A stretch of DNA of 64,000 nt from Escherichia phage phiWec179, in the sequence record LC739533.1; one strand, 5' to 3'. Under the pieces are notes generated by a model that worked only from the letters and a program-made list of their open reading frames with translations, had not been told where the DNA came from and did not search any database. Below, in pieces: positions 15,513 to 53,760 of this stretch (the first letter of the stretch is position 1; the number at the start of each line of letters is the position of its first letter). The position numbers were made by a program, and so were the translations under genes.

Positions 15513-15873
15513 GATAATCTCCTCTCTTGGTTTCATGACAAACATCCTAATTCTCAACGAGGAACATCTTACGATCAATCCTCGGCAATTACAATTCATT
15601 TATCATCGCTTTTCCCTATCAATTATTCTATATATACCTGTTATTTTTGACACCCCCTTTGGTCAAATATTAATCGGCAAAATATCTGGGGGTACTCTAT
15701 AAAATGATGCCCCCTGTTCCTGCAATTTATCGAGGAGAATATCATTCGACTATCATCGGCAAAGAGACAGAAAAGCCTTTGGTAGCAAGGATTTATGGCG
15801 AGTACGTCAGGACTGCTTAACGCGAATTTTTCGGCCCCTCCACTTCTGCGAGCCGGAATCCTCAAATATCAAT

Positions 15874-15892
15874 GAGAATAATTATCATTATC
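15874..15892. promoter_or_regulatory. Fur-box-like 19-bp site GAGAATAATTATCATTATC
   Basis: 16 of 19 matches to GATAATGATAATCATTATC by eye; half-site TGAGAAT shared with 30352..30465. Confidence 0.3.
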
Positions 15893-28110: not shown

Positions 28111-28170
28111 GTGAGCGGCACCATTGCCGCCTGATGAGTTAACTATAAGGGATCACGTTTTACCTGTCAA
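28111..28170 (-). promoter_or_regulatory. promoter + 5'UTR stem-loop cassette (PeSL-like)
   Basis: TTGACA-N17-TATAGT TAACTCATCAGG + hairpin CGGCAATGGTGCCG. Confidence 0.55.
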
Positions 28171-28724
28171 CCTAAATCATCAAAATAAAGATAATTTTTT
28201 TCGGCTTCTTTCTTCTCTTCCTGTGATGCCTCAAAGACTGGGAGAAAGTGATCAAAGGCGACGCACTCAACCGCTTGATCGTCTTCCTCTTCCTGGTCTT
28301 CCTCCTGGGCTATGGCTGCAATTTTGGCTAATTTCCTTTCAGCCTGGATCAGCTTACCATCTAAAACGCTTTTAGCGGTGCTGTACGCCGTCCAAGTGAT
28401 GCGCTTACTTTCCAGCGCGGCATCAAGCGCCGCTATCTTGCTGGGGTATTCATCCAGGACACGAAAAGCCGGATCTACCTTGTACAGCGGATTATCTTTC
28501 GCGCCGTCGCTATCATCTGCGGCGCTTGCAATGTCAGCGTTACCATTCGCCAGCCAACCAGGGCGATCGCTGCGTGTTTTGGTATTCCCATGACTACGCG
28601 CCGATCTGTTGCCTACTTGCTCGCCACTATAGCCAGGAGCATGATCGATCATGTCGTCCGGTATAATGCGCGGATCATTAACGTCATGTTTTACCCAGGA
28701 CTGGATCACATATTCGCGCCCCAT
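28167..28724 (-). CDS. hypothetical acidic protein
   Basis: 185 aa; higher GC than neighbours; EEDQEEEDDQ tract. Confidence 0.5.
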   Translation of the reverse strand: MGREYVIQSWVKHDVNDPRIIPDDMIDHAPGYSGEQVGNRSARSHGNTKTRSDRPGWLANGNADIASAADDSDGAKDNPLYKVDPAFRVLDEYPSKIAALDAALESKRITWTAYSTAKSVLDGKLIQAERKLAKIAAIAQEEDQEEEDDQAVECVAFDHFLPVFEASQEEKKEAEKNYLYFDDLG

Positions 28725-28984
28725 TATACACCCCTTTTAACAATCATTTCACACACAAGAAATAAGCTGGCGGAATCACGGCAAGGATAGAAAGATGTAC
28801 GATAATCTCTCACCCCTGCTTTTATGATCTCCGTGGTTTTACCTGATAGCACATTGTAAATAGTGTAACTTGTCGGACTGTTTTTATATACCTTGCCAGG
28901 GTAGATCATAACATAACGAGCAAGGTTATAAAATTCCTCGTTACGAAAGGCTATGATCTTCCCGCATACCTTAAGAAAGTGCAC
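28724..28984 (-). CDS. hypothetical protein
   Basis: 86 aa. Confidence 0.45.
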   Translation of the reverse strand: MHFLKVCGKIIAFRNEEFYNLARYVMIYPGKVYKNSPTSYTIYNVLSGKTTEIIKAGVRDYRTSFYPCRDSASLFLVCEMIVKRGV

Positions 28985-28994
28985 GTTAGCCCCC

Positions 28995-29267
28995 TTACAG
29001 CAAAAAGTTTACTTGTCTTGCTGTTAATGTAGTATCAACCATTTTCGGGCTTTTATAATTGACAAAACGCGCGGTTTTTTCAATAGCGAAGCCGAGATAA
29101 TCTTGTTTGTTGAAATTACATTCTTTCTTAAATGTTTCCCGTGCAATGGCGATCGCTGCGTCCAGGGATAAACGCCCGTCAATATTGATATTTGCGAAAG
29201 ATCCGCCACCGCTCATAGGTTTACCAGTGGTGCCCGTTACGATCATTGTTGCGCTATATGATGCCAT
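28995..29267 (-). CDS. hypothetical protein
   Basis: AGAGATTATCATC + ATG at 29267 (MASYSATMIV). Confidence 0.45.
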   Translation of the reverse strand: MASYSATMIVTGTTGKPMSGGGSFANINIDGRLSLDAAIAIARETFKKECNFNKQDYLGFAIEKTARFVNYKSPKMVDTTLTARQVNFLL

Positions 29268-29287
29268 GATGATAATCTCTCTTAGTT

Positions 29288-29351
29288 GTGAGCGGTGGAC
29301 CATTCCGCCGCTCTACGTGATACATCTTATCAGGTTGTTGCCTGTTGTCAA
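29288..29351 (-). promoter_or_regulatory. promoter + 5'UTR stem-loop cassette (PeSL-like)
   Basis: TTGACA-N17-TAAGAT GTATCACGTAGAG + hairpin CGGCGGAATGGTCCACCGC. Confidence 0.6.
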
Positions 29352-29357
29352 TACTTT

Positions 29358-29555
29358 TTATTCAAGCCCTACGATATGTAAGACACGGCGATTAGCAATA
29401 GCGTGCTGGTCTTCTGTTATAACGCCCATTTCTACCAGTGAATCAAGAAAGGAAAGCACCGTGATATATTCGTCATCGGGTACACTCATTTCATTAGTAC
29501 CGTTTACCACTACGTTGATTTGTCCTGCTTTCGCTACAATGTGCAATGTTGCCAT
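29358..29555 (-). CDS. hypothetical protein
   Basis: 65 aa; long GC-rich leader upstream. Confidence 0.45.
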   Translation of the reverse strand: MATLHIVAKAGQINVVVNGTNEMSVPDDEYITVLSFLDSLVEMGVITEDQHAIANRRVLHIVGLE

Positions 29556-29829
29556 GATCTTAACTCCAGGTGATGAATGATGTTTTTTGTTGGTTGACGG
29601 TGGATTATGGAGATCCTCACCTTTGCCCGTCCTGCATTGCGCCCTCCTGTTGTTTATTGTCGTTGTGCCTCGCCCCCCTCGACAAGATTAATACTACGCT
29701 ACCAGGTGCGGAACGTCAACGACTTTTTCAATCTTTTTTATTTTCTTTTTGCTTGCTATATATAAAGGAAAGGGCTATCATCTTTCTACCGCGCCAACCA
29801 GGGCGCACAACAGAAGAAAGGGCGACACC

Positions 29830-30096
29830 ATGACAACTACTACATTACACCTTATGCACTCGTTAGGCTGGCAAGGCGGCACGGTCCACCAGGTAGCAAG
29901 CGCAACGGGCTTAAAGGTTGAAACAGTTCTCAACCTGGGCGATCATAAAGTGGAAGAGATAGACCATTTTGATCCGTTCGCTGATGGTTATCTCTGGGCT
30001 TGCAGTGGCGGCGGGGAAAGCAAGATACCGCCAGCCGCGCGGGGCGATATGCATTTTTGGTTAGGTGTTCTCTCCTGGCAAGAAAACAAAAAATAA
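29830..30096 (+). CDS. hypothetical protein in GC-rich island (tentative)
   Basis: ATG at 29830 (MTTTTLHLMHSLGWQGG...); only plus-strand ORF between two minus-strand arrays; overlapping ORFs in other frames. Confidence 0.3.
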   Translation: MTTTTLHLMHSLGWQGGTVHQVASATGLKVETVLNLGDHKVEEIDHFDPFADGYLWACSGGGESKIPPAARGDMHFWLGVLSWQENKK

Positions 30097-30351: not shown

Positions 30352-30465
30352 TGCAAATGAGAAAAATTCTCATTTGCAAATAAGACTCATTCGCATTTAA
30401 TAATTGAATGAGAATCATTCTCATTCTCATTCGTATTTCGATTTTAAGTGAGAATAATTCTCATT
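30352..30465. promoter_or_regulatory. three operator-like palindromes sharing half-site AATGAGAA
   Basis: TGCAAATGAGAAaaaTTCTCATTTGCA (30352-30378, perfect 12-3-12); AATGAGAATcATTCTCATT (30407-30425); TGAGAATaATTCTCA (about 30449-30463). Confidence 0.5.
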
Positions 30466-30476
30466 TCGGTAATTTT

Positions 30477-30680
30477 CACGTAAACTTTAGAATTTGCTTT
30501 TCAACTTTCACTTTTGTAAAAGCAAAAAAACTTTAAATACCTGGTGCGCGCGACTTTTTAAAAAATTTTTCTCGGTTTTTTGCTTTGAAATCTGGCCCAC
30601 CAATTTGAGATAGTGTACGTAAACTTTAGAATTTGGTTTTGGATTCTCACTTTTGTAAACTCGTAAAAAGTTTAAATAAT
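30477..30680. repeat. imperfect ~64-bp direct repeat (two copies)
   Basis: ACGTAAACTTTAGAATTTG..CACTTTTGTAAA..TTTAAATA at 30477-30539 and 30616-30680. Confidence 0.5.
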
Positions 30681-30805
30681 TGTAGGGATTTTGAGATAGT
30701 TTGCTTGTAAGGTTTGAGATAATCCTTCCCGAAGATGTTACGCAGCCTACAGCCTACCTGAATGCTCGTCTAACGAGATTAACTCTAAAAGATGAGTGTT
30801 GGTGT

Positions 30806-30846
30806 AGCTAAAGAGAAAAGGCTCTCTACGGTGTTGTAGGAGCCTT
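30806..30846 (-). terminator. rho-independent-like terminator after NADAR gene
   Basis: minus strand hairpin AAGGCTC..GAGCCTT followed by TTCTCTTT, about 70 nt past stop of 30917..31444. Confidence 0.4.
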
Positions 30847-30916
30847 ATTTCTGTGGCACAAAGTTGACGTATTCTTTTTAAAAACGAATTTTTTCAAAAT
30901 ATCACGAATATCGCCT

Positions 30917-31444
30917 TTATGGTATTTTGGCTGGGAACAGGATTTTAATCAGATTGTTGTGGTATTGTCCTAAAAGATTCTGCCCTTTCCAGTTGGCAGG
31001 ATTAAGCACCCCTGGTTCGTACATACCCATTCCAATTCCGTAAACCTTATCATAAGGACTCGCCTCAACGAACGTTTTGAATTGGTACAGTCGCAAGTCA
31101 GAATAAAGATCAGGGTTCTGTGTATACTTCAAGCATAAGCCTCGCATTACGATACGCTCTCGGTACTCTTCCCACATGTCATTATTAAAACCAGACACCG
31201 CTCGACCCATGCGCTTGTAGTATGCCTGTCCCTTCTCGTCGTCACGCTTCATTGAGTGATCAAGGATAGCTGCTGCGATTACCTGATCCTTGAACAGCAA
31301 AGCCTTACGCCACATCATGTATTGCTCTACACAACAGAAAGTTTCATTGTACCCTGGTTCCGTCTCTGTGAATGGTGCAATGTACCAATTGCTAAACACA
31401 TCTTTATGTGAAAAGAAGAATACATATTCATTAGTTATTCGCAT
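30917..31444 (-). CDS. NADAR (YbiA-like) family protein
   Basis: FFFSHKDVFSNW...ETFCCVEQYMMWRKALLFKD...MWEEYRERIVMRGL..KYTQNPDL...FVEASPYDKVYGIGMG...NWKGQNLLGQ matches NADAR signature. Confidence 0.8.
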   Translation of the reverse strand: MRITNEYVFFFSHKDVFSNWYIAPFTETEPGYNETFCCVEQYMMWRKALLFKDQVIAAAILDHSMKRDDEKGQAYYKRMGRAVSGFNNDMWEEYRERIVMRGLCLKYTQNPDLYSDLRLYQFKTFVEASPYDKVYGIGMGMYEPGVLNPANWKGQNLLGQYHNNLIKILFPAKIP

Positions 31445-31619
31445 TTTTCATGCCTCTTAAGACTTCAGCTTGCCCGTCTTGAAAAGCTTTCATCAGAACT
31501 ATCTTAAGATTGACTTCCAAGCGTTCTTCATCCTCTTTATAACAATCCAACACTGCCTTAAGTTCATCATAGTGGTTCAGAATAGGTTTAAAGATTTCAT
31601 GATCTGCTAAACGTGCCAT
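31431..31619 (-). CDS. hypothetical protein
   Basis: AAAGGAGAAACT + ATG at 31619 (MARLADHEIF). Confidence 0.4.
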   Translation of the reverse strand: MARLADHEIFKPILNHYDELKAVLDCYKEDEERLEVNLKIVLMKAFQDGQAEVLRGMKNANN

Positions 31620-31632
31620 AGTTTCTCCTTTG

Positions 31633-31998
31633 TTAGTCCATCCACCAGTAGCCATAAACTGCGTCTGCGTCGATGAGTTTGTGTTTGTTGTTCCGCATGT
31701 AGTCTAAGATAAGTAGACGTTTATTGTATCTGGAGAGATTATGACCCTCTTTTCCGCCATAGTCAAAATATTTTGCAAGACTTTTACACTCAAACAAAAT
31801 CAGTTCGGGAGTTTCTTCACATTGGTCTGTCTGGTACACTTGACGGATGATCATGTATACGTCATCGTCTTCCGCTAAGTGCTCTACTGGTCCACACCCA
31901 GCAGGAATAAATTCATAGTCCCATCGAATCAGATGTTTCTCTACTGCTTCAAAGAAATCCATTTTTTCGCTACGCATGATCTGAACATCAATTAACAT
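31633..31998 (-). CDS. hypothetical protein
   Basis: 121 aa. Confidence 0.5.
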   Translation of the reverse strand: MLIDVQIMRSEKMDFFEAVEKHLIRWDYEFIPAGCGPVEHLAEDDDVYMIIRQVYQTDQCEETPELILFECKSLAKYFDYGGKEGHNLSRYNKRLLILDYMRNNKHKLIDADAVYGYWWMD

Positions 31999-33004
31999 AA
32001 TTTTCCTCCTGTCTCATTATTCCACCTGCTTGGTTGATAGCACTTAAGACAACAGCCAAATCCTCACGCAGGAAGGTTTCACTATGACCGTCTTTCATGT
32101 GCAACGCTTCCACACAGCCGATAGACGGTAGGATCTGATCAGTCTTAGATTTTAGCTTACTCTCTAACGCCCTGCAAGCCTGGTAGGACGGCAGATCAAA
32201 CAATGCTACACGTTGCATAAAGTAGTTATTATTTGCATTCTGAATCTTCAAACGTATATCACTATCCTTTGCAATCCCCAGCTTGAAAGCTCCCGTATCT
32301 TCTCCATACTCATCAAGGATAACGTTGATGTAAAATTCTTGCTGTGATCTGCCTTTACATTCAGAACAACCATTCCCACTTAGATACTTATTAGGTGTTA
32401 TCGTTTGTTCTCCGTGCTCACTACATAAATATTTAAACTTAGACATGGTTCCCACCTTACCAACGAACCCTATAAACTGGTCCCCTCGTTCCTGGCAAGC
32501 TTCAGTCATACGGAAAATCCATTGCGCAGGAGTGTAACGATGGTTTTTAGAACAACGGCAAGCAAGCAGCCCATCTCTAAGACTGCTCCTCGTTACTTCA
32601 AACCTACCGTTACACACGCCAGCCTTTACATATTCGTCATGAGAACATACGGAACACTTAACTATCCAATAAGCCGCCCATCCTTTACTATCTAATCTAT
32701 CACTACGATAATACTCACGCGGAACGTTATCAGGACACGCTTTGTTAAAGGTTGTGATATGGATTGAATCATCAATTAAACATGTTTGCCTTATTGCTTC
32801 CACCCTACAACCTTTACAACCACTTCCTATTTTAGCATTATCTATAGAAGTTGTTCTCCATTCCCCATGTATAGAACATTCACAGGTTAGTTTAGTGCGT
32901 GCCCCCTTCCATTCACCATGCCACCCCGTAATGGTCCACGGTTTATCCTGGTAAGCTTGTTCTATTTCTTCCTGATATTCCTCCCAACTTTTAGCCCTCA
33001 TCAT
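31988..33004 (-). CDS. zinc-ribbon repeat + T5orf172 (GIY-YIG-like) domain protein, homing-endonuclease-like
   Basis: repeated C..C...G.GC..C zinc-ribbon units; C-terminal FKLGIAKDSDIRLK...HMKDGHSETF; paralog of 36572..37525. Confidence 0.5.
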   Translation of the reverse strand: MMRAKSWEEYQEEIEQAYQDKPWTITGWHGEWKGARTKLTCECSIHGEWRTTSIDNAKIGSGCKGCRVEAIRQTCLIDDSIHITTFNKACPDNVPREYYRSDRLDSKGWAAYWIVKCSVCSHDEYVKAGVCNGRFEVTRSSLRDGLLACRCSKNHRYTPAQWIFRMTEACQERGDQFIGFVGKVGTMSKFKYLCSEHGEQTITPNKYLSGNGCSECKGRSQQEFYINVILDEYGEDTGAFKLGIAKDSDIRLKIQNANNNYFMQRVALFDLPSYQACRALESKLKSKTDQILPSIGCVEALHMKDGHSETFLREDLAVVLSAINQAGGIMRQEENYVN

Positions 33005-33041
33005 CCCCCCTACAACAAATGCCCCTTGCGGGGCATCTTTA

Positions 33042-34181
33042 TTAGAACACGCTACTTAAGGTTGCAGATCGTGTAGTGGTTGGTTCCAGAACCACACGGA
33101 ACGTATCCCCAGGTTTATCGCTCACTACTACAATCTTACCACCTTCGATCAGGTCACACTTCAAACCTTCGGCAGTAGCTTTCAGGTCGATGCGTGGATC
33201 GCCATCATCATCCAGGATAACGTAGCTGCTATCTTCGAGAGGCTCCAGTTCTTCGTCTTTCACGGCTTCCAGGTAGATGTTCAGTTCACATGCACCAGAC
33301 AAGAACTTGGTAGGAGTGAACTCATGCCAGTTGTTGACCCAGTTAGGCTTGATAGCTTTACCGTTGACAACAATAGAGCTAATCGTCCAGCGTGCATCGT
33401 TACCCAGAGAGATACCCATCATCTCCAGACAGGTCTTGAACGTCATTTTCGGATAGAAGTTTAACTCTTCTACGATCCCTTGAATAACATCGAAAGACAG
33501 TTCAGTGCTAACATCCCACAAACGTTGGAAGCTTTCAACATGTTTGCGATTCTTCAGATTCTTGTCCAGGTAGTCCAGCATAGTTTCAATAGACAGTTTG
33601 TCGTAGTTGAAGCTATAGAAGATACGGCTCGGACGGTTGACGAAGTATTCCGAGATGTATCCGCTGTTCTTTGTCAGCATGAACAGTTTGTTACCGCTAC
33701 CTGTGCCATCCAGCAGAGTCAGCAGTGCTTCCTGATCTTCCTTCTTGGAATACACTTTGTCGAACTCATCGAACAGTACTACTGCGCGTTCAGAGATCTT
33801 ACTCATGAACTCCAGGAAATTGGCATCAGAATATGGCTGCGTTACCAGAATAGTTGGGATTCCCAGGTCTTCCGCTTCCAACAGAGTGTTACTGATCAGT
33901 TTTGCCAGCATTGTCTTGCCACTGCCTTTTGTACCCGACAACAGGACACCTGTGTTCTTACCTTCTTTACTACGACGAGCGAAGGTACGGATAACGTGGG
34001 CTGCACGTTCTTTGGTTTCCCCGTACAGGCGATCAGGAATCGTGAACTTATCAGCGCGACTAAGAGAATAGTTACCATGTGGATCACAATTGACAGTCCA
34101 AACGCCAGCGGGGAGTTTATCAACCTCTACACCAAAATCTTTATTAACAATTGCAACATCCCCATAAACTGTGTATTTCAT
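33042..34181 (-). CDS. P-loop NTPase (AAA+-like ATPase)
   Basis: Walker A GTKGSGKT, Walker B VVLFDEFD; 379 aa. Confidence 0.6.
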   Translation of the reverse strand: MKYTVYGDVAIVNKDFGVEVDKLPAGVWTVNCDPHGNYSLSRADKFTIPDRLYGETKERAAHVIRTFARRSKEGKNTGVLLSGTKGSGKTMLAKLISNTLLEAEDLGIPTILVTQPYSDANFLEFMSKISERAVVLFDEFDKVYSKKEDQEALLTLLDGTGSGNKLFMLTKNSGYISEYFVNRPSRIFYSFNYDKLSIETMLDYLDKNLKNRKHVESFQRLWDVSTELSFDVIQGIVEELNFYPKMTFKTCLEMMGISLGNDARWTISSIVVNGKAIKPNWVNNWHEFTPTKFLSGACELNIYLEAVKDEELEPLEDSSYVILDDDGDPRIDLKATAEGLKCDLIEGGKIVVVSDKPGDTFRVVLEPTTTRSATLSSVF

Positions 34182-34249
34182 TTACTTTCTCCTCTTCTGT
34201 TGGAATAGACGTATTATCTCTTGTCTAATACGTCTTGTCAATACTTGTT

Positions 34250-34609
34250 TTAGATCCCTTCGCCTTTAGTGATGATAGCTTCCATCACCACAGCTTTCTT
34301 CTTACGTTGAACATCTTGACGGATCAGGAGGCTACCACCTTGATCATCCTTATACTGCTTCATGATGATGAAGTTGTTGCCACACACAGCGCCGATAGCC
34401 ACGTATGGGCGATTAGAATTATCCACATCCGCAGATGGGGTTACATCCGTGCAAGTAAAGAACTTGCCATCAGGATCAGTATAAGCAAAGTGGCCTTTAG
34501 CAGTTACTGCAACTTCTCCGGTGCTTGTGGACTGTGCAGCCACAAACGGTGCAGCAGATGCTACGAAACTTGCAGACAGCAGGGCTACAGCTAAAATAAT
34601 CTTTTTCAT
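34250..34609 (-). CDS. secreted protein
   Basis: signal-peptide-like MKKIILAVALLSASFVASA. Confidence 0.5.
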   Translation of the reverse strand: MKKIILAVALLSASFVASAAPFVAAQSTSTGEVAVTAKGHFAYTDPDGKFFTCTDVTPSADVDNSNRPYVAIGAVCGNNFIIMKQYKDDQGGSLLIRQDVQRKKKAVVMEAIITKGEGI

Positions 34610-34619
34610 GGTGATCTCC

Positions 34620-34781
34620 TCTTATTCCAACAACATACACAATGCAGCTACAACCAAGAACAGAGTAGCCACGCTTAAAGCGATAAACATTCCTAATTGA
34701 GAATGAAATTCGCCTATGATAGGTGCAGACAACGCACTTAGCAAACAACCTGTCAAACTTGCTTTGATAATAAGATCTAAC
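34620..34781 (-). CDS. small membrane protein (53 aa)
   Basis: AGGAGG + ATG; two hydrophobic segments; below ORF-track cutoff. Confidence 0.35.
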
Positions 34782-34791
34782 ATATTACCTC

Positions 34792-35043
34792 CTACAATTC
34801 CACAATAGTTTTATCTAAGTGGTGTGCCTCAACTTGAGATAAGGTTAGCACTTCAACCAAACCTCTGTCAATACCTAATTTGATCACTTGCAAATAATCA
34901 CCGAAAAGATCAGAGATTTCAATCTGGTGTTCAGTAACCACCACGACCTCGTTACCCTTGGTATACTCTCTCCAGATTCGTCCACACTTATAAATGAAAT
35001 CTTTCTGGTCTTCACTGATCATCTTAGGCTTAACGCTTAACAT
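34792..35043 (-). CDS. hypothetical protein
   Basis: 83 aa. Confidence 0.45.
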   Translation of the reverse strand: MLSVKPKMISEDQKDFIYKCGRIWREYTKGNEVVVVTEHQIEISDLFGDYLQVIKLGIDRGLVEVLTLSQVEAHHLDKTIVEL

Positions 35044-35411
35044 TACATACTCCCGTAGTCTGGTTCAATATGGTGTTTACGACAAATAGCATCCCAACGT
35101 TCACTACCGAAACCCCGTCCGTGTAGTGCATCGTATGCGAAATGTTCTGCCAACCACAATACTACACCATCTGGTTCAGTGTCAAGCGGAATTCGAAATT
35201 CTCGATCATAACGCATACGGAGAACAAACTCATTACCGTCTTCCAGGAGATGCATGTGACTTTTCGCTCGTGATGCCAAGTCAAAGAAAGGTGCCTCGTC
35301 TTTCCAAACCTGGCGCTCAACCTCAATACCGTGATCAACTACCAGGGTAGCAATCACATCTTTCATTTCTTTACTAAACATATTCCCTCCTAATAATGTT
35401 TTAAAGTCCAC
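35043..35411 (-). CDS. hypothetical protein
   Basis: 122 aa. Confidence 0.5.
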   Translation of the reverse strand: MDFKTLLGGNMFSKEMKDVIATLVVDHGIEVERQVWKDEAPFFDLASRAKSHMHLLEDGNEFVLRMRYDREFRIPLDTEPDGVVLWLAEHFAYDALHGRGFGSERWDAICRKHHIEPDYGSM

Positions 35412-35635
35412 TCAATACCTGACGGGTAACTGCCTCGACAAATCTTACCATCGGAATGCCAGTTAATGCTATCAGGGAAAGTATGATTTAGTGTTTTTTC
35501 ATGAGGAAGCCATTCTGTAGGCTTCTCTCCACCATTGATCCATACAAAACCTTCGTCTTCCAGTAAACCTAAAGCAAACTCCATCTCTTCTGCATCGTGA
35601 ACCGTTACTTTCTGACCTTTCTGTAATTTAATCAT
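35390..35635 (-). CDS. hypothetical protein
   Basis: 81 aa. Confidence 0.45.
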   Translation of the reverse strand: MIKLQKGQKVTVHDAEEMEFALGLLEDEGFVWINGGEKPTEWLPHEKTLNHTFPDSINWHSDGKICRGSYPSGIEWTLKHY

Positions 35636-35644
35636 ATTACCCCC

Positions 35645-35830
35645 TTAACCAATTAGTTGGACTGCCTTGCAGATGTAAATCCAAACAGGACTAAGCATAA
35701 GTGCTACAATACTGGGGTAAATCCCTTTTGGCTCTATCTCAATTATTGATAAGATTAAGGTGACAGCACTGATAAACATATAAGCTCCCAAGAAAGCCAG
35801 CGTCAAGAATTCAGACATAATTAGCTCCAC
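35645..35830 (-). CDS. small membrane protein
   Basis: hydrophobic FLTLAFLGAYMFISAVTLILSI. Confidence 0.4.
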   Translation of the reverse strand: MELIMSEFLTLAFLGAYMFISAVTLILSIIEIEPKGIYPSIVALMLSPVWIYICKAVQLIG

Positions 35831-36153
35831 AAGTTATGAAAATATTCAGCAAACAGGCAACGACCTTCGATTTTATCCGTTTTGGTCATAACGGATTCAG
35901 GTTTAAAACCTTCAATCATTTGATCAATAATGGATAACCACTCCACTGTAGCTTCCCGCTCCTGCTCTTCTGTTAGTTTACGGTAATCTGACACATATTT
36001 AGCCCAAATCTTAGATGGGATAAGGATATCCCCTCGTTCCACAATACGTGCCTTGAACGCGTACAGTCCAGCACAGATAATCGCGGAGAACGTATCATCC
36101 AGGTCTTGCAGATCTTCTACGCCAAATTGTAATTCATCATGGATAATTTTCAT
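35821..36153 (-). CDS. hypothetical protein
   Basis: 110 aa. Confidence 0.5.
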   Translation of the reverse strand: MKIIHDELQFGVEDLQDLDDTFSAIICAGLYAFKARIVERGDILIPSKIWAKYVSDYRKLTEEQEREATVEWLSIIDQMIEGFKPESVMTKTDKIEGRCLFAEYFHNLWS

Positions 36154-36437: not shown

Positions 36438-36482
36438 TTTGTTCTCCTCTCACATTAGGACACGTTTTGTGTCGATGGGTGT

Positions 36483-36511
36483 AGATTACGTGAGCACAAA
36501 GGGGTTGTCAA
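36483..36511 (-). promoter_or_regulatory. sigma70-like promoter (leftward)
   Basis: minus strand TTGACA-N17-TAATCT, back-to-back with rightward promoter. Confidence 0.45.
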
Positions 36512-36516
36512 CTACT

Positions 36517-36545
36517 TATTGACAAAAATTTCTAAACGTTGTAAA
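36517..36545 (+). promoter_or_regulatory. sigma70-like promoter (rightward)
   Basis: TTGACA-N17-TAAATT, 27 nt before AAGGAGG + ATG of 36572. Confidence 0.5.
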
Positions 36546-36571
36546 TTAAAAACATCTACAAAGGAGGAAAC

Positions 36572-37525
36572 ATGAAATACGAAGATTTTAAACAAATAGT
36601 TAAAGACGATGTGGTATTTGAGAACTTACAGGAAGGTTGTGAAGTCTTAGGTTGGACAGAAAGAGATAGAAACTTTGCAAAAATATACGTAATACGTTGT
36701 AGTGTTTGTGCCAAAGACCCCGAAATGTATGGAGATGGTCTTTTTACAGCTACAAAAGGGCGTTTAGTGAAAGGTCAGAAATGTTGCGCGTGCGCTGTAT
36801 CCTTTAAATACAGTCAAAACCAACACCTAATTCTGCTAAACAGGCATTTAAGTGTCGCAGGGTACAGCATAGTTTCTATTGGTGCTTGGGAGTGTTCTAA
36901 GACGAGAATAGAGTTTAGTTGTGAGAATGGACACACGAAGAACAGAACCCTGGCTCAAGCAAAGGTAGTAGAACCTTGTAAACAGTGTCTTGAAGAAGGC
37001 TGTACAAAACACAAACAAGATGAGGCAGAGGCAAAAATTATGAAGATAATAGAAGATAAATGTTTACCTTATGTATTTGTAGGGTGGGATACTTCTTACA
37101 AGAATGTAACTTCAAAATTCAACCTCATCTGTTCGGATCACGGTTTAAAAACAATAAGATACGCTTGTTTCCTAAATGGTCATTTTTGTAACGAGTGTTC
37201 TGGTAGAAATTGCCTAAGTCTTTATTTATTAGGAGTTTATGATAGAGACTTGTTGGTAGGTTTAAAATTTGGCATCTCTCAGAGTCCAGTAAGAAGGGTT
37301 CAACAGTTAAATAAAAGGAACTTATTTAAATGTAAAATACTACAGATTTGGACTTTTACATCACATGATCAAGCTGTACGGATGGAAACATTATTAAAGA
37401 ACACATTGCGAACTGGAATATTTACTAAAAGAGAGATGAAAGATGGTCATACAGAAACCACAGAAGTTACTAATTTAGAAACCATAATGGACCTTATGAC
37501 CTCATCTCATGGATTGGTTAGTTAA
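36572..37525 (+). CDS. zinc-ribbon repeat + T5orf172 (GIY-YIG-like) domain protein, homing-endonuclease-like
   Basis: CSVCAKDP..CCAC, CKQCLEEGC, CNECSG cysteine pairs; C-terminal LKFGISQSPVRRVQQL...EMKDGHTETTEV. Confidence 0.5.
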   Translation: MKYEDFKQIVKDDVVFENLQEGCEVLGWTERDRNFAKIYVIRCSVCAKDPEMYGDGLFTATKGRLVKGQKCCACAVSFKYSQNQHLILLNRHLSVAGYSIVSIGAWECSKTRIEFSCENGHTKNRTLAQAKVVEPCKQCLEEGCTKHKQDEAEAKIMKIIEDKCLPYVFVGWDTSYKNVTSKFNLICSDHGLKTIRYACFLNGHFCNECSGRNCLSLYLLGVYDRDLLVGLKFGISQSPVRRVQQLNKRNLFKCKILQIWTFTSHDQAVRMETLLKNTLRTGIFTKREMKDGHTETTEVTNLETIMDLMTSSHGLVS

Positions 37526-37820
37526 CAAAAACCTTAACATTTCCGATGTTCTTGCTGACTTCTTGTGAGAACATTGAAAGTACCTTGTCAAGCAGTTTTA
37601 CTAATTCATTTGTAATTTGTTCCTCTGAACGAGAAGAAGTAAGTACCTTACTCTCACCAACGATGTGCATCACCTTGATAGGAGCATTCAGGATAACATT
37701 GTGCTTTTCATCTTCTTCGAAAGATGCTAACCACTTCTCATTATTCCCGTGCAAAGCCACGATAACACCAAAACCGTTAATAGTTTGTGAAATGTTCTTA
37801 GTTGCTAATGTAATGTTCAT
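37518..37820 (-). CDS. hypothetical protein (lone minus-strand gene)
   Basis: AGAGAGG + ATG; own promoter TTGACC-N16-TACAAT at 37849..37876. Confidence 0.45.
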   Translation of the reverse strand: MNITLATKNISQTINGFGVIVALHGNNEKWLASFEEDEKHNVILNAPIKVMHIVGESKVLTSSRSEEQITNELVKLLDKVLSMFSQEVSKNIGNVKVFVN

Positions 37821-52785: not shown

Positions 52786-53760
52786 ATGCAACTTGGTTTT
52801 CCAATCATTGATGTAGTGGTGTTGGTAGGTATTCTTGTTCTGTCGATCTGTGTTGACTTTTTTGGTCATCGTGAAAACAAGGAGATCTCTTTCAAATCCG
52901 CTGTGGCTTGGTCAGTATTCTGGATTGGTGTGTCTTTAGCCTACTACGGTTTTGTATACTTCCAGCACGGCGCAGCTTTTGCAAACTTATTCTTGAGTGG
53001 ATATGTGTTAGAGAAGTCGCTCTCGGTAGATAACTTGGTAGTGTTTGTAGCAGTGTTCTCCAGTTTCGGGATTAAGAGCACACACTTACAACACAAAATT
53101 CTACTCTGGGGTATTGCAGGTGCGATTGTCTTCCGAGGTGTGTTTGTAGCAGCAGGGACTTATCTGCTAAGTTTGGGTTGGTTTGTTAATATCATCTTCG
53201 GTGCTGTTATCCTGTTCTGTGCTTTTAAAATGGTAATGGCTGGCGGTGATGATGAAGAAGTGGATTACTCTAAACATTGGGCGACACGCTTTGTACGTAA
53301 ACTATTCCCAGTATCGGATCAGATGGATGGCGAGAAGTTCTTCACAATTAAGAATGGTGTTCGTGTAGCAACTCCGGCTCTGGTTTGTGTGTTCGTGATG
53401 GAAATGGTGGATGTGATCTTTGCAGTAGACTCGGTTCCGGCTGTAATTGCAGTGACACAAGAACCACTGCTTGTATTCTCTTCGATGCTCTGTGCAATCT
53501 TAGGCTTACGTGCTCTGTTCTTTGTTCTTAGTGTGGCCCTGAAGTATCTGGTTCACCTGGAAAAAGCAGTTATCGCAGTCCTGGTGTTTGTTGGTGTGAA
53601 ACTGATGTATCACCCGTTTGCAGAAACGCTGCACGCAAAAGTGAGCTTCCTGCCAGCGCATATTGACCCGACGATCAGCATGTATATCGTGCTTGGTACT
53701 CTGACCCTGGGCGTGATTGCAAGTTTCATCTTCCCTGAAAAAGAAGAAGCTACCGCTTAA
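52786..53760 (+). CDS. terC: TerC-family integral membrane protein
   Basis: multiple TM helices; two TerC-type motifs EKSLSVDNLVVF and AVDSVPAVIAV. Confidence 0.7.
   Translation: MQLGFPIIDVVVLVGILVLSICVDFFGHRENKEISFKSAVAWSVFWIGVSLAYYGFVYFQHGAAFANLFLSGYVLEKSLSVDNLVVFVAVFSSFGIKSTHLQHKILLWGIAGAIVFRGVFVAAGTYLLSLGWFVNIIFGAVILFCAFKMVMAGGDDEEVDYSKHWATRFVRKLFPVSDQMDGEKFFTIKNGVRVATPALVCVFVMEMVDVIFAVDSVPAVIAVTQEPLLVFSSMLCAILGLRALFFVLSVALKYLVHLEKAVIAVLVFVGVKLMYHPFAETLHAKVSFLPAHIDPTISMYIVLGTLTLGVIASFIFPEKEEATA

Follow-up and report, generated by a model that had tools for sequence, protein, structure and literature searches.

In phage T4, the NADAR protein gp30.3 (AdfN) was found to strip the ADP-ribose made by DarT1 from phage DNA (Johannesman et al., Nat Commun 2025, PMC11825919). 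The unrelated phage NADARs AdfN^Bas32 and AdfN^Bas60 both neutralise DarT1 in uninfected Escherichia coli and enable RB69, T5 and Bas25 to form plaques again on DarTG1 hosts, but are of no help against DarTG2 (PMC11825919). AdfN^T4 requires the T-even context, which the Bas60 type does not (PMC11825919), and reportedly needs an unidentified T4 factor for full activity. The E. coli protein YbiA also hydrolyses guanine-ADP-ribose in vitro, and such hydrolysis can occur without cellular protection, YbiA and T4 gp30.3 both having failed against DarT1 in uninfected cells (Cihlova et al.). Here, we describe a Phapecoctavirus orthologue of AdfN^Bas60 in Escherichia phage phiWec179 (sequence record LC739533.1), of which a stretch of 64,000 nucleotides, further called the window, was analysed. 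At positions 30917-34181 of this window, five open reading frames (ORFs) follow each other on the minus strand, coding for an ATPase, an endonuclease-like protein, a 121-residue protein, a 74-residue protein and NADAR.

A first interpretation of this DNA, made from the letters only (the sequence-only reading), had grouped NADAR, the P-loop ATPase and a zinc-ribbon/T5orf172 protein into one block, as a candidate counter-defence locus. The ORFs it named were all recovered at their positions on the minus strand, and two of its domain calls were borne out by Pfam, namely NADAR (PF08719, E=1.2e-33, 117.1 bits with a cutoff of 35.1) and the ATPase (GTKGSGKT and VVLFDEFD present; PF00004, 37.6 bits with a cutoff of 21.2). 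Our analysis leads to another view of how these genes relate to each other: with a probability of roughly 0.72, we consider the region to hold three independent things and not one system, these being an AdfN-type NADAR, a homing-endonuclease insertion and an AAA+ ATPase.

The NADAR protein and its characterised relatives

The NADAR gene (30917-31444, minus strand) encodes a stand-alone protein of 175 residues. In a sequence search, the interval 30500-34700 was 100% identical to phages phiWec181 and phiWec186 (genus Phapecoctavirus, subfamily Stephanstirmvirinae), which originate from pig-farm sewage in Japan and in which GenBank labels every gene of the region 'hypothetical protein'. The phi92-like phages Bas60-62 now belong to the sister genus Justusliebigvirus. 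Phage PaulScherrer (= Bas60, MZ501100) carries, in this order, bas60_0109 ('FtsH-like protease'), bas60_0110 (hypothetical) and bas60_0111 ('putative YbiA-like N-glycosidase'), to which the window ATPase, endonuclease and NADAR are 67%, 38% and 57% identical, respectively, the NADAR alignment extending over 172 residues (E=4e-68). Because bas60_0111 is the YbiA-like protein annotated in this record, and because one NADAR match was obtained per Justusliebigvirus record listed, we infer that it is the published AdfN^Bas60. The window NADAR and AdfN^Bas60 have their stand-alone size, the ATPase-endonuclease-NADAR order, the subfamily and the active-site residues in common. They differ in genus, in two small ORFs that the window phage adds between endonuclease and NADAR, and in an N-terminal loop that is 7 residues shorter in the window member. 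No T-even phage was present among the 718 tblastn hits of the window NADAR at E<=1e-3, and the protein therefore lies outside the T4 AdfN clade.

An AlphaFold2 model of NADAR, built from 30 homologues, had a predicted local distance difference test (pLDDT) score of 96.7. Comparison of this model to the PDB with Foldseek returned the Phytophthora nicotianae NADAR (PnNADAR) with ADP-ribose (8BAU; template modelling (TM) score 0.80, E=1.5e-9) and E. coli YbiA (2B3W; TM 0.69), and beyond these two no match at E<=0.001. In PnNADAR, the residues holding ADP-ribose or acting in catalysis are E43, K50, K75, R79, W89, R93, E125 and D130 (Schuller et al., PMC11543638). A phmmer alignment to 8BAU, together with the homologue alignments, puts these in register with E40, K47, K77, R81, W91, R95, E127 and D132 of the window NADAR. 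E40, K47, W91 and E127 are invariant in the alignment of 30 homologues and K77, R81 and D132 are kept in at least 90%, while the position of PnNADAR W133 is taken by a tyrosine (Y135), as it is in AdfN^Bas60. The catalytic residues, on whose loss the sequence-only reading was to be given up, are thus retained from E40 to D132.

With Glu127 at the position of PnNADAR E125, the protein falls among the Glu-type NADARs; according to the literature, DarT1-linked NADARs possess Asp and T4-like NADARs His at this site. AdfN^T4 (gp30.3) and DarG1 share the superfamily and presumably the chemistry (hydrolysis of guanine-N2-ADP-ribose on DNA) with the window NADAR, but represent different clades by this residue, which is His in the T4 type and Asp in DarG1. 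DarG1 is moreover encoded beside DarT1, whereas no ADP-ribosyltransferase domain was found in the ORFs neighbouring the window NADAR (31431-34181, 28167-30096 and 34250-36153; the whole window was not scanned exhaustively for DarT). With YbiA and PnNADAR (2B3W and 8BAU), the window protein has the fold and the YbiA-type Glu in common. It differs in being phage-encoded and in that YbiA gave no protection against DarT1 in cells, whereas the Bas60 orthologue of the window NADAR did.

The window NADAR very probably acts against DarT1-type defence as a DNA guanine-ADP-ribose glycohydrolase. The earlier proposal that this NADAR reverses guanine ADP-ribosylation is supported by its identity to AdfN^Bas60, by the matching gene order and by the tests of AdfN^Bas60 against DarT1 and DarTG1; the mechanism as such has already been published (2023-2025). 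Activity and phenotype are predicted here from three observations, namely the fold, the active-site residues and the orthology with a tested protein. NADAR would act as an orphan-antitoxin-type DNA ADP-ribosylglycohydrolase of the AdfN kind, which during infection would remove the ADP-ribose put by DarT1-like toxins on guanine N2 in phage DNA, as such allowing replication to go on in DarTG1 hosts.

Several points weigh against this assignment. An identity of 57% could leave room for a different substrate specificity, and in vitro hydrolysis of guanine-ADP-ribose is not always accompanied by cellular protection, as is the case for YbiA and T4 gp30.3 against DarT1. In addition, NADAR exceeds the cutoff of the NCBIfam model for a riboflavin-intermediate N-glycosidase domain (TIGR02464, 109.7 bits with a cutoff of 73.7), a match that is a sequence criterion only and belongs to a model that also covers ADP-ribose-active enzymes, and it carries the YbiA-type Glu127. 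Its substrate might then be something other than DarT1-modified DNA: a small immune signal derived from ADP-ribose, RNA or cytidine bearing ADP-ribose, or an intermediate of the riboflavin pathway in a YbiA-like housekeeping role. A substrate of this sort would agree with the view that phage NADAR and macrodomain proteins mainly target low-molecular-weight ADP-ribose derivatives (Iyer et al., PMC9503650) and with the reported reversal of cytidine and RNA ADP-ribosylation by NADARs (PMC12945103, PMC11833690). It would also agree with the surroundings of the NADAR homologue in Listeria phage LP-083-2 (locus L010, 2475-7852), which lies amid genes for RtcB, an RNA ligase, a 'tRNA amidotransferase' and a phosphoesterase; such an RNA-repair setting may mean that part of the NADAR clade acts on RNA-related ADP-ribose products. 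We nevertheless regard another substrate as unlikely, since the closest characterised relative neutralises DarT1 and restores plaquing on DarTG1 hosts. Neither riboflavin genes nor the dinG-ybiB SOS operon context were found near the window NADAR, whose neighbours are phage ORFs without assigned function. Moreover, YbiA itself hydrolyses guanine-ADP-ribose in vitro, so that the two activities need not exclude each other.

The endonuclease gene as a mobile insertion

In phage ICP1, free-standing homing endonucleases combine CapR repeats, variable in number, with a T5orf172 domain (Barth et al. 2023, PMC10448857). The gene at 31988-33004 (minus strand) of the window codes for a 338-residue protein predicted to be of this kind, with three CapR repeats and a C-terminal T5orf172/GIY-YIG-like domain. 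What had been called a zinc-ribbon/T5orf172 protein held for its zinc-finger part, the PF21817 CapR zinc finger (CxxC...CxC) matching in three stretches with 93.2 bits (cutoff 24.2). The T5orf172 part, on the contrary, stayed below the Pfam threshold (E=0.16, 13 bits with a cutoff of 20; profile positions 3-98 of 101 covered), which counts against a working nuclease. The core motifs of a GIY-YIG-like domain (FYINV, KLGIA and the Glu of GHSETF) seem intact by eye, and the protein matches phrog_681 'endonuclease' (E=3.6e-57); a PDB sequence search gave no match.

The gene is mobile, being present or absent as an insertion at a fixed site between near-identical genomes. Phages phiWec188, phiWec190 and PsgM04F are about 97% identical to the region at 76% coverage and miss the endonuclease gene. 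Pairwise alignment with phiWec188 places at about 32010-33016 an insertion of some 1.0 kb that neither phiWec188 nor phiWec190 has. It comprises nearly the whole gene, and in its place phiWec188 has about 11 nt between flanks of 97% identity. It is bounded by a hairpin 3' of the ATPase gene on one side and by the ribosome-binding site of the 121-residue protein's gene on the other, and the annotation of the insertion-free phages shows this latter gene directly after that of the ATPase. Other alleles occupy the same spacer elsewhere: one of 486 residues and 68% identity (phAPEC8 type), one of 48% identity (an IMG/VR contig), and those of 390-467 residues and 38% identity in Justusliebigvirus. 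Like the ICP1 endonucleases, the window protein has CapR modules, followed by a putative T5orf172/GIY-YIG-like nuclease domain, its gene occupies an intergenic site beside a conserved gene and the repeat number varies among its alleles (338 to 486 residues). It belongs to another phage lineage, however, and has a nuclease domain too divergent for the Pfam threshold, with a predicted cleavage activity. We infer that the protein is a selfish free-standing homing endonuclease, with a presumed homing mechanism and target site.

A candidate for this target was found in the 3' end of the ATPase gene, beside the insertion. The mismatch map against phiWec188 shows six synonymous differences within 18 nt (33043-33060, minus strand), more closely spaced than mismatches anywhere else in the 3.2 kb that were compared, with a background of 2.5%. 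We tentatively consider this cluster as a recoded recognition or immunity site of the endonuclease. The gene would have inserted into the intergenic spacer 3' of the ATPase terminator and would probably spread by cleaving relatives that do not carry it, at a site close to where the ATPase gene ends, which is synonymously recoded in the window phage.

A second CapR/T5orf172-like endonuclease gene is present at 36572-37525 (plus strand), encoding 317 residues of which the C-terminus is 28% identical to the 338-residue protein; its T5orf172 (18 bits) and MUG113 (21.7 bits) matches are both just under the cutoff. The segment containing it (indel at about 36482-37569) is missing in phiWec188, which has a gene for a 163-residue protein there, and phiWec181 is without that gene. 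By comparison of these genomes, the segment is another mobile-endonuclease polymorphism.

The 338-residue protein could conversely be a domesticated DNA-binding regulator of the downstream genes, including NADAR, that no longer engages in homing. Precedent exists in CapR of the PLE satellite, itself a domesticated endonuclease-derived repressor (PMC8096241, PMC10448857), and both the sub-threshold nuclease domain and the overlap of the ORF's 3' end with the start of the 121-residue protein's gene would suit such a function. The presence/absence polymorphism, the several divergent alleles at one site and the second paralogue are nonetheless typical of mobile homing endonuclease genes, the nuclease core motifs look intact, and close relatives keep the NADAR operon without the endonuclease gene, which together make a regulator extremely unlikely.

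The ATPase gene and its linkage to NADAR

The ATPase (33042-34181, minus strand; 379 residues) belongs to the classic clade of AAA+ ATPases and matches phrog_2376 'ATPase' with E=6e-109. In its AlphaFold2 model (pLDDT 84), an N-terminal beta domain, the AAA+ core and a C-terminal beta domain follow each other. Invariant among 30 homologues are Walker A (G83-T90), Walker B (D138/E139), the sensor-1 residue N172 and R183/R186 of an RPSR motif, whereas a canonical aromatic pore-loop motif was not seen between Walker A and Walker B when judged by eye. The best PDB matches of the model in Foldseek were Bcs1, Bacillus subtilis YjoB, proteasomal Rpt/Mpa and FtsH (E of about 1e-8). With Bcs1, YjoB, Rpt/PAN/Mpa and FtsH, the window ATPase shares the AAA+ core, Walker A and B, the sensor-1 Asn and the RPxR arginine motif; the flanking beta domains are unique to the window family, which has no protease domain, and the TM score amounts to only about 0.42. 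At E<=1e-5, 929 relatives of this family were found, which include proteins of Herelleviridae, of jumbo phages and of phages of Aeromonas, Proteus and Lactococcus. Between the window phage and phiWec188 (L002, 4547-5686), the ATPase genes differ at about 26 nt while the proteins are 100% identical, a pattern that indicates strong purifying selection.

The gene appears to have its own transcription signals. A sigma-70-like promoter match (TTGACA-17-GATAAT, 11 of 12 positions) lies on the minus strand at 34213-34241, 32 nt 5' of the start codon. Directly after the stop, the terminator scan found a G+C-rich hairpin, ATGCCCCTTGCGGGGCAT, at 33019-33036, which is kept in phages with and without the insertion; in phage Schickermooser, the annotation of the corresponding position has a terminator on the strand of the ATPase gene. 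A further terminator-like hairpin with U-run is situated on the minus strand about 70 nt 3' of the NADAR stop (30809-30846; RNA fold of -20.6 kcal/mol, z=-3.9 compared to shuffles) and, according to this fold, would end the NADAR transcript.

To determine how constant the neighbourhood is, ATPase homologues were sought by tblastn within flanks of at most 10 kb in 80 NADAR-bearing loci of IMG/VR, complemented with four annotated distant phages. Only 4 of the 80 loci had one, all of them Stephanstirmvirinae. In the distant phages PVP-SE1, Staphylococcus Sb-1, Klebsiella Eowyn and Listeria LP-083-2, none was found within 4 kb of NADAR, and in Yersinia phage fHe-Yen9-04 a distance of about 180 kb separates NADAR from the ATPase gene. 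A linkage of ATPase and NADAR beyond the subfamily was rejected on these grounds (4 of 80 loci, one subfamily, none near NADAR in the four distant phages).

These observations bear directly on the idea of a single counter-defence module in which ATPase, endonuclease-like protein and NADAR would cooperate, with the AAA+ ATPase for example loading NADAR onto DNA, or remodelling or unfolding a protein of the host defence. The ATPase-(endonuclease)-NADAR order is common to Phapecoctavirus and Justusliebigvirus, and dependence on a partner has a precedent in AdfN^T4 with its T4 factor. AdfN^Bas60, however, has a like gene arrangement and acts alone, in E. coli without infection as well as in three phages unrelated to each other. 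The endonuclease gene can be dispensed with, as relatives whose flanks are 97% identical do not have it, members of the ATPase family are found in many phages at a great distance from NADAR or without it, their homologues stand near NADAR in one subfamily only, and a terminator-like hairpin parts the ATPase gene from the downstream genes. We therefore hold such a module to be very unlikely. The three-gene block of the sequence-only reading does not stand as a locus of shared function: its endonuclease is a presence/absence insertion, its ATPase family does not accompany NADAR outside the subfamily, and the tested orthologue AdfN^Bas60 needs no phage partner.

Because of the linkage survey, the transcription signals and the autonomy of AdfN^Bas60, we attribute the adjacency of these genes to shared ancestry instead of an operon-level partnership. 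The ATPase and the endonuclease are most likely unrelated bystanders to NADAR, and the ATPase, as a conserved classic-clade AAA+ protein, would lie beside it only by common descent within Stephanstirmvirinae. Against such independence it must be said that the synteny of ATPase and NADAR is kept across two genera, so that a lineage-specific functional link may exist, and that the promoter and terminator calls around the ATPase gene are consensus matches only. A more limited association is conceivable as well, in which the AAA+ ATPase would itself be an anti-defence factor or a potentiator of AdfN, in a lineage-specific two-component unit split by the landing site of a homing endonuclease; the ATPase could for instance act as an unfoldase by which DarT or some other immune protein is removed. 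We deem this highly improbable, and continue to see three independent elements.

The macrodomain gene and other features of the window

At 20 kb from NADAR, a gene on the plus strand (51987-52469) encodes a stand-alone macrodomain of 160 residues of the TARG1/DarG/SCO6735 class, with Gln83 at the position of DarG K80. Its Pfam match is marginal (23.0 bits with a cutoff of 22), whereas PHROG 335 matches with E=6e-58, and its best NCBIfam model is DarG (E=2e-11), which is also matched in PADLOC (E=3e-12). As judged by its match to the full-length DarG model, it is not a full-length DarG antitoxin: it scores 43.7 bits with a cutoff of 250, the macrodomain part alone aligns, and Gln83 replaces the catalytic Lys (K80). 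The best PDB sequences were SCO6735 (5E3B, E=6e-13, GQ aligned to GQ), BT1257, Thermus aquaticus DarG and human TARG1, and T4 Tk.4 is 35% identical (E=6e-23) with the Gln aligned. Tk.4 is AdfM, the T4 factor required on DarTG2 hosts (2025 preprint), and Q85 of SCO6735 is essential for the removal of thymidine-linked ADP-ribose from DNA (PMC9411070). The window gene has the stand-alone macrodomain of about 160 residues and the Gln at the DarG K80 position in common with T4 Tk.4/AdfM and Streptomyces SCO6735, and differs from both by being embedded in a cluster with a HAD hydrolase, a ComF-like phosphoribosyltransferase (PRTase) and TerC. By analogy with these proteins, it probably removes thymidine-linked (DarT2-type) ADP-ribose. 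That this phage would carry two ADP-ribose-reversal activities, as formerly suggested, is plausible with a macrodomain homologous to the anti-DarTG2 protein Tk.4/AdfM, and the Tk.4/AdfM- and SCO6735-like enzyme could together with NADAR constitute a dual arsenal like that of T4.

In the survey described above, a macrodomain homologue was located at most 3 kb from NADAR and on the same strand in 11 of the 80 loci, representing about 7-8 independent lineages, with a spacing of 3-2850 nt and sometimes abutting it (L017, L043, L055 and L088, and also L018, L020-L022, L026, L057 and L058, in unrelated IMG/VR phage contigs). This suggests that NADAR and macrodomain are a recurrent pair, in agreement with the co-occurrence noted by Iyer et al. 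(PMC9503650).

The cluster around the window macrodomain (50501-53760) consists of a HAD-like hydrolase gene (50501-51157), a ComF-like PRTase_3 gene (51129-51977, E=7e-41), the macrodomain gene, a gene for a small membrane protein and one for a TerC-family membrane protein (52786-53760). It bears a resemblance to the Ter-linked nucleoside-metabolite gene sets known from work of the Aravind group. Given this context, the macrodomain could also act on a metabolite.

The two small conserved ORFs between endonuclease and NADAR, which the sequence-only reading had left out, lie on the minus strand at 31633-31998 (121 residues; phrog_24465, E=2e-84) and 31431-31655 (74 residues as ORF; phrog_22330, E=3e-43). 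The GenBank version of the latter is 62 residues long with its start at 31619, and the ORF is restricted to Phapecoctavirus loci, being missing from those of Justusliebigvirus. Searches in Pfam, NCBIfam, PADLOC and PDB yielded no match for either protein, and both PHROG families are without assigned function.

Downstream of NADAR, a non-coding gap of about 800 nt contains three palindromes resembling Fur boxes (TGAGAAT-N-ATTCTCA, in 7-1-7 arrangement) at 30358, 30409 and 30449, forming a cluster at 30355-30466. The window has four of these palindromes (the fourth at 15873-15887), whereas 0.05 are expected by chance, and they could be operator sites for a Fur-family regulator of phage or host. 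The same gap holds two direct repeats of 62 nt (30478-30539 and 30617-30678; 84% identical), each overlapping a plus-strand sigma-70-like promoter match directed at the antisense side of NADAR and not followed by a plus-strand ORF. The repeats matched no Rfam family, and in the whole window neither Rfam matches nor tRNA genes were found.

The GenBank labels of these genes in relatives are inconsistent and probably wrong: the names in use are 'GTP cyclohydrolase II' for NADAR, 'FtsH-like protease' or 'Zn metalloprotease' for the ATPase and 'phosphatase' for the macrodomain. We rejected the first label, which has been carried over from the annotation of a ribA-fusion domain, as well as those of the ATPase, of which the AAA module alone matches and the C-terminal beta domain has no protease match. 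In several records of 'Campylobacter' and 'Pseudomonas' phages, the host seems to be mislabelled as well, their sequences being near-identical to those of coliphages.

Earlier publications cover the mechanism as well as the idea of orphan antitoxins in phages and the co-occurrence of NADAR and macrodomain, and what we describe here is an orthologue of a known counter-defence family. It extends the AdfN family, experimentally defined in Justusliebigvirus, to Phapecoctavirus, whose members are often employed in work on phage therapy against avian pathogenic E. coli (APEC) and E. coli producing extended-spectrum beta-lactamases (ESBL). These phages are predicted to resist DarTG1 by means of NADAR and DarTG2 by means of the Tk.4-like macrodomain, which may be of use for host-range prediction and for the correction of the 'GTP cyclohydrolase II', 'FtsH-like protease' and 'phosphatase' labels in this family.

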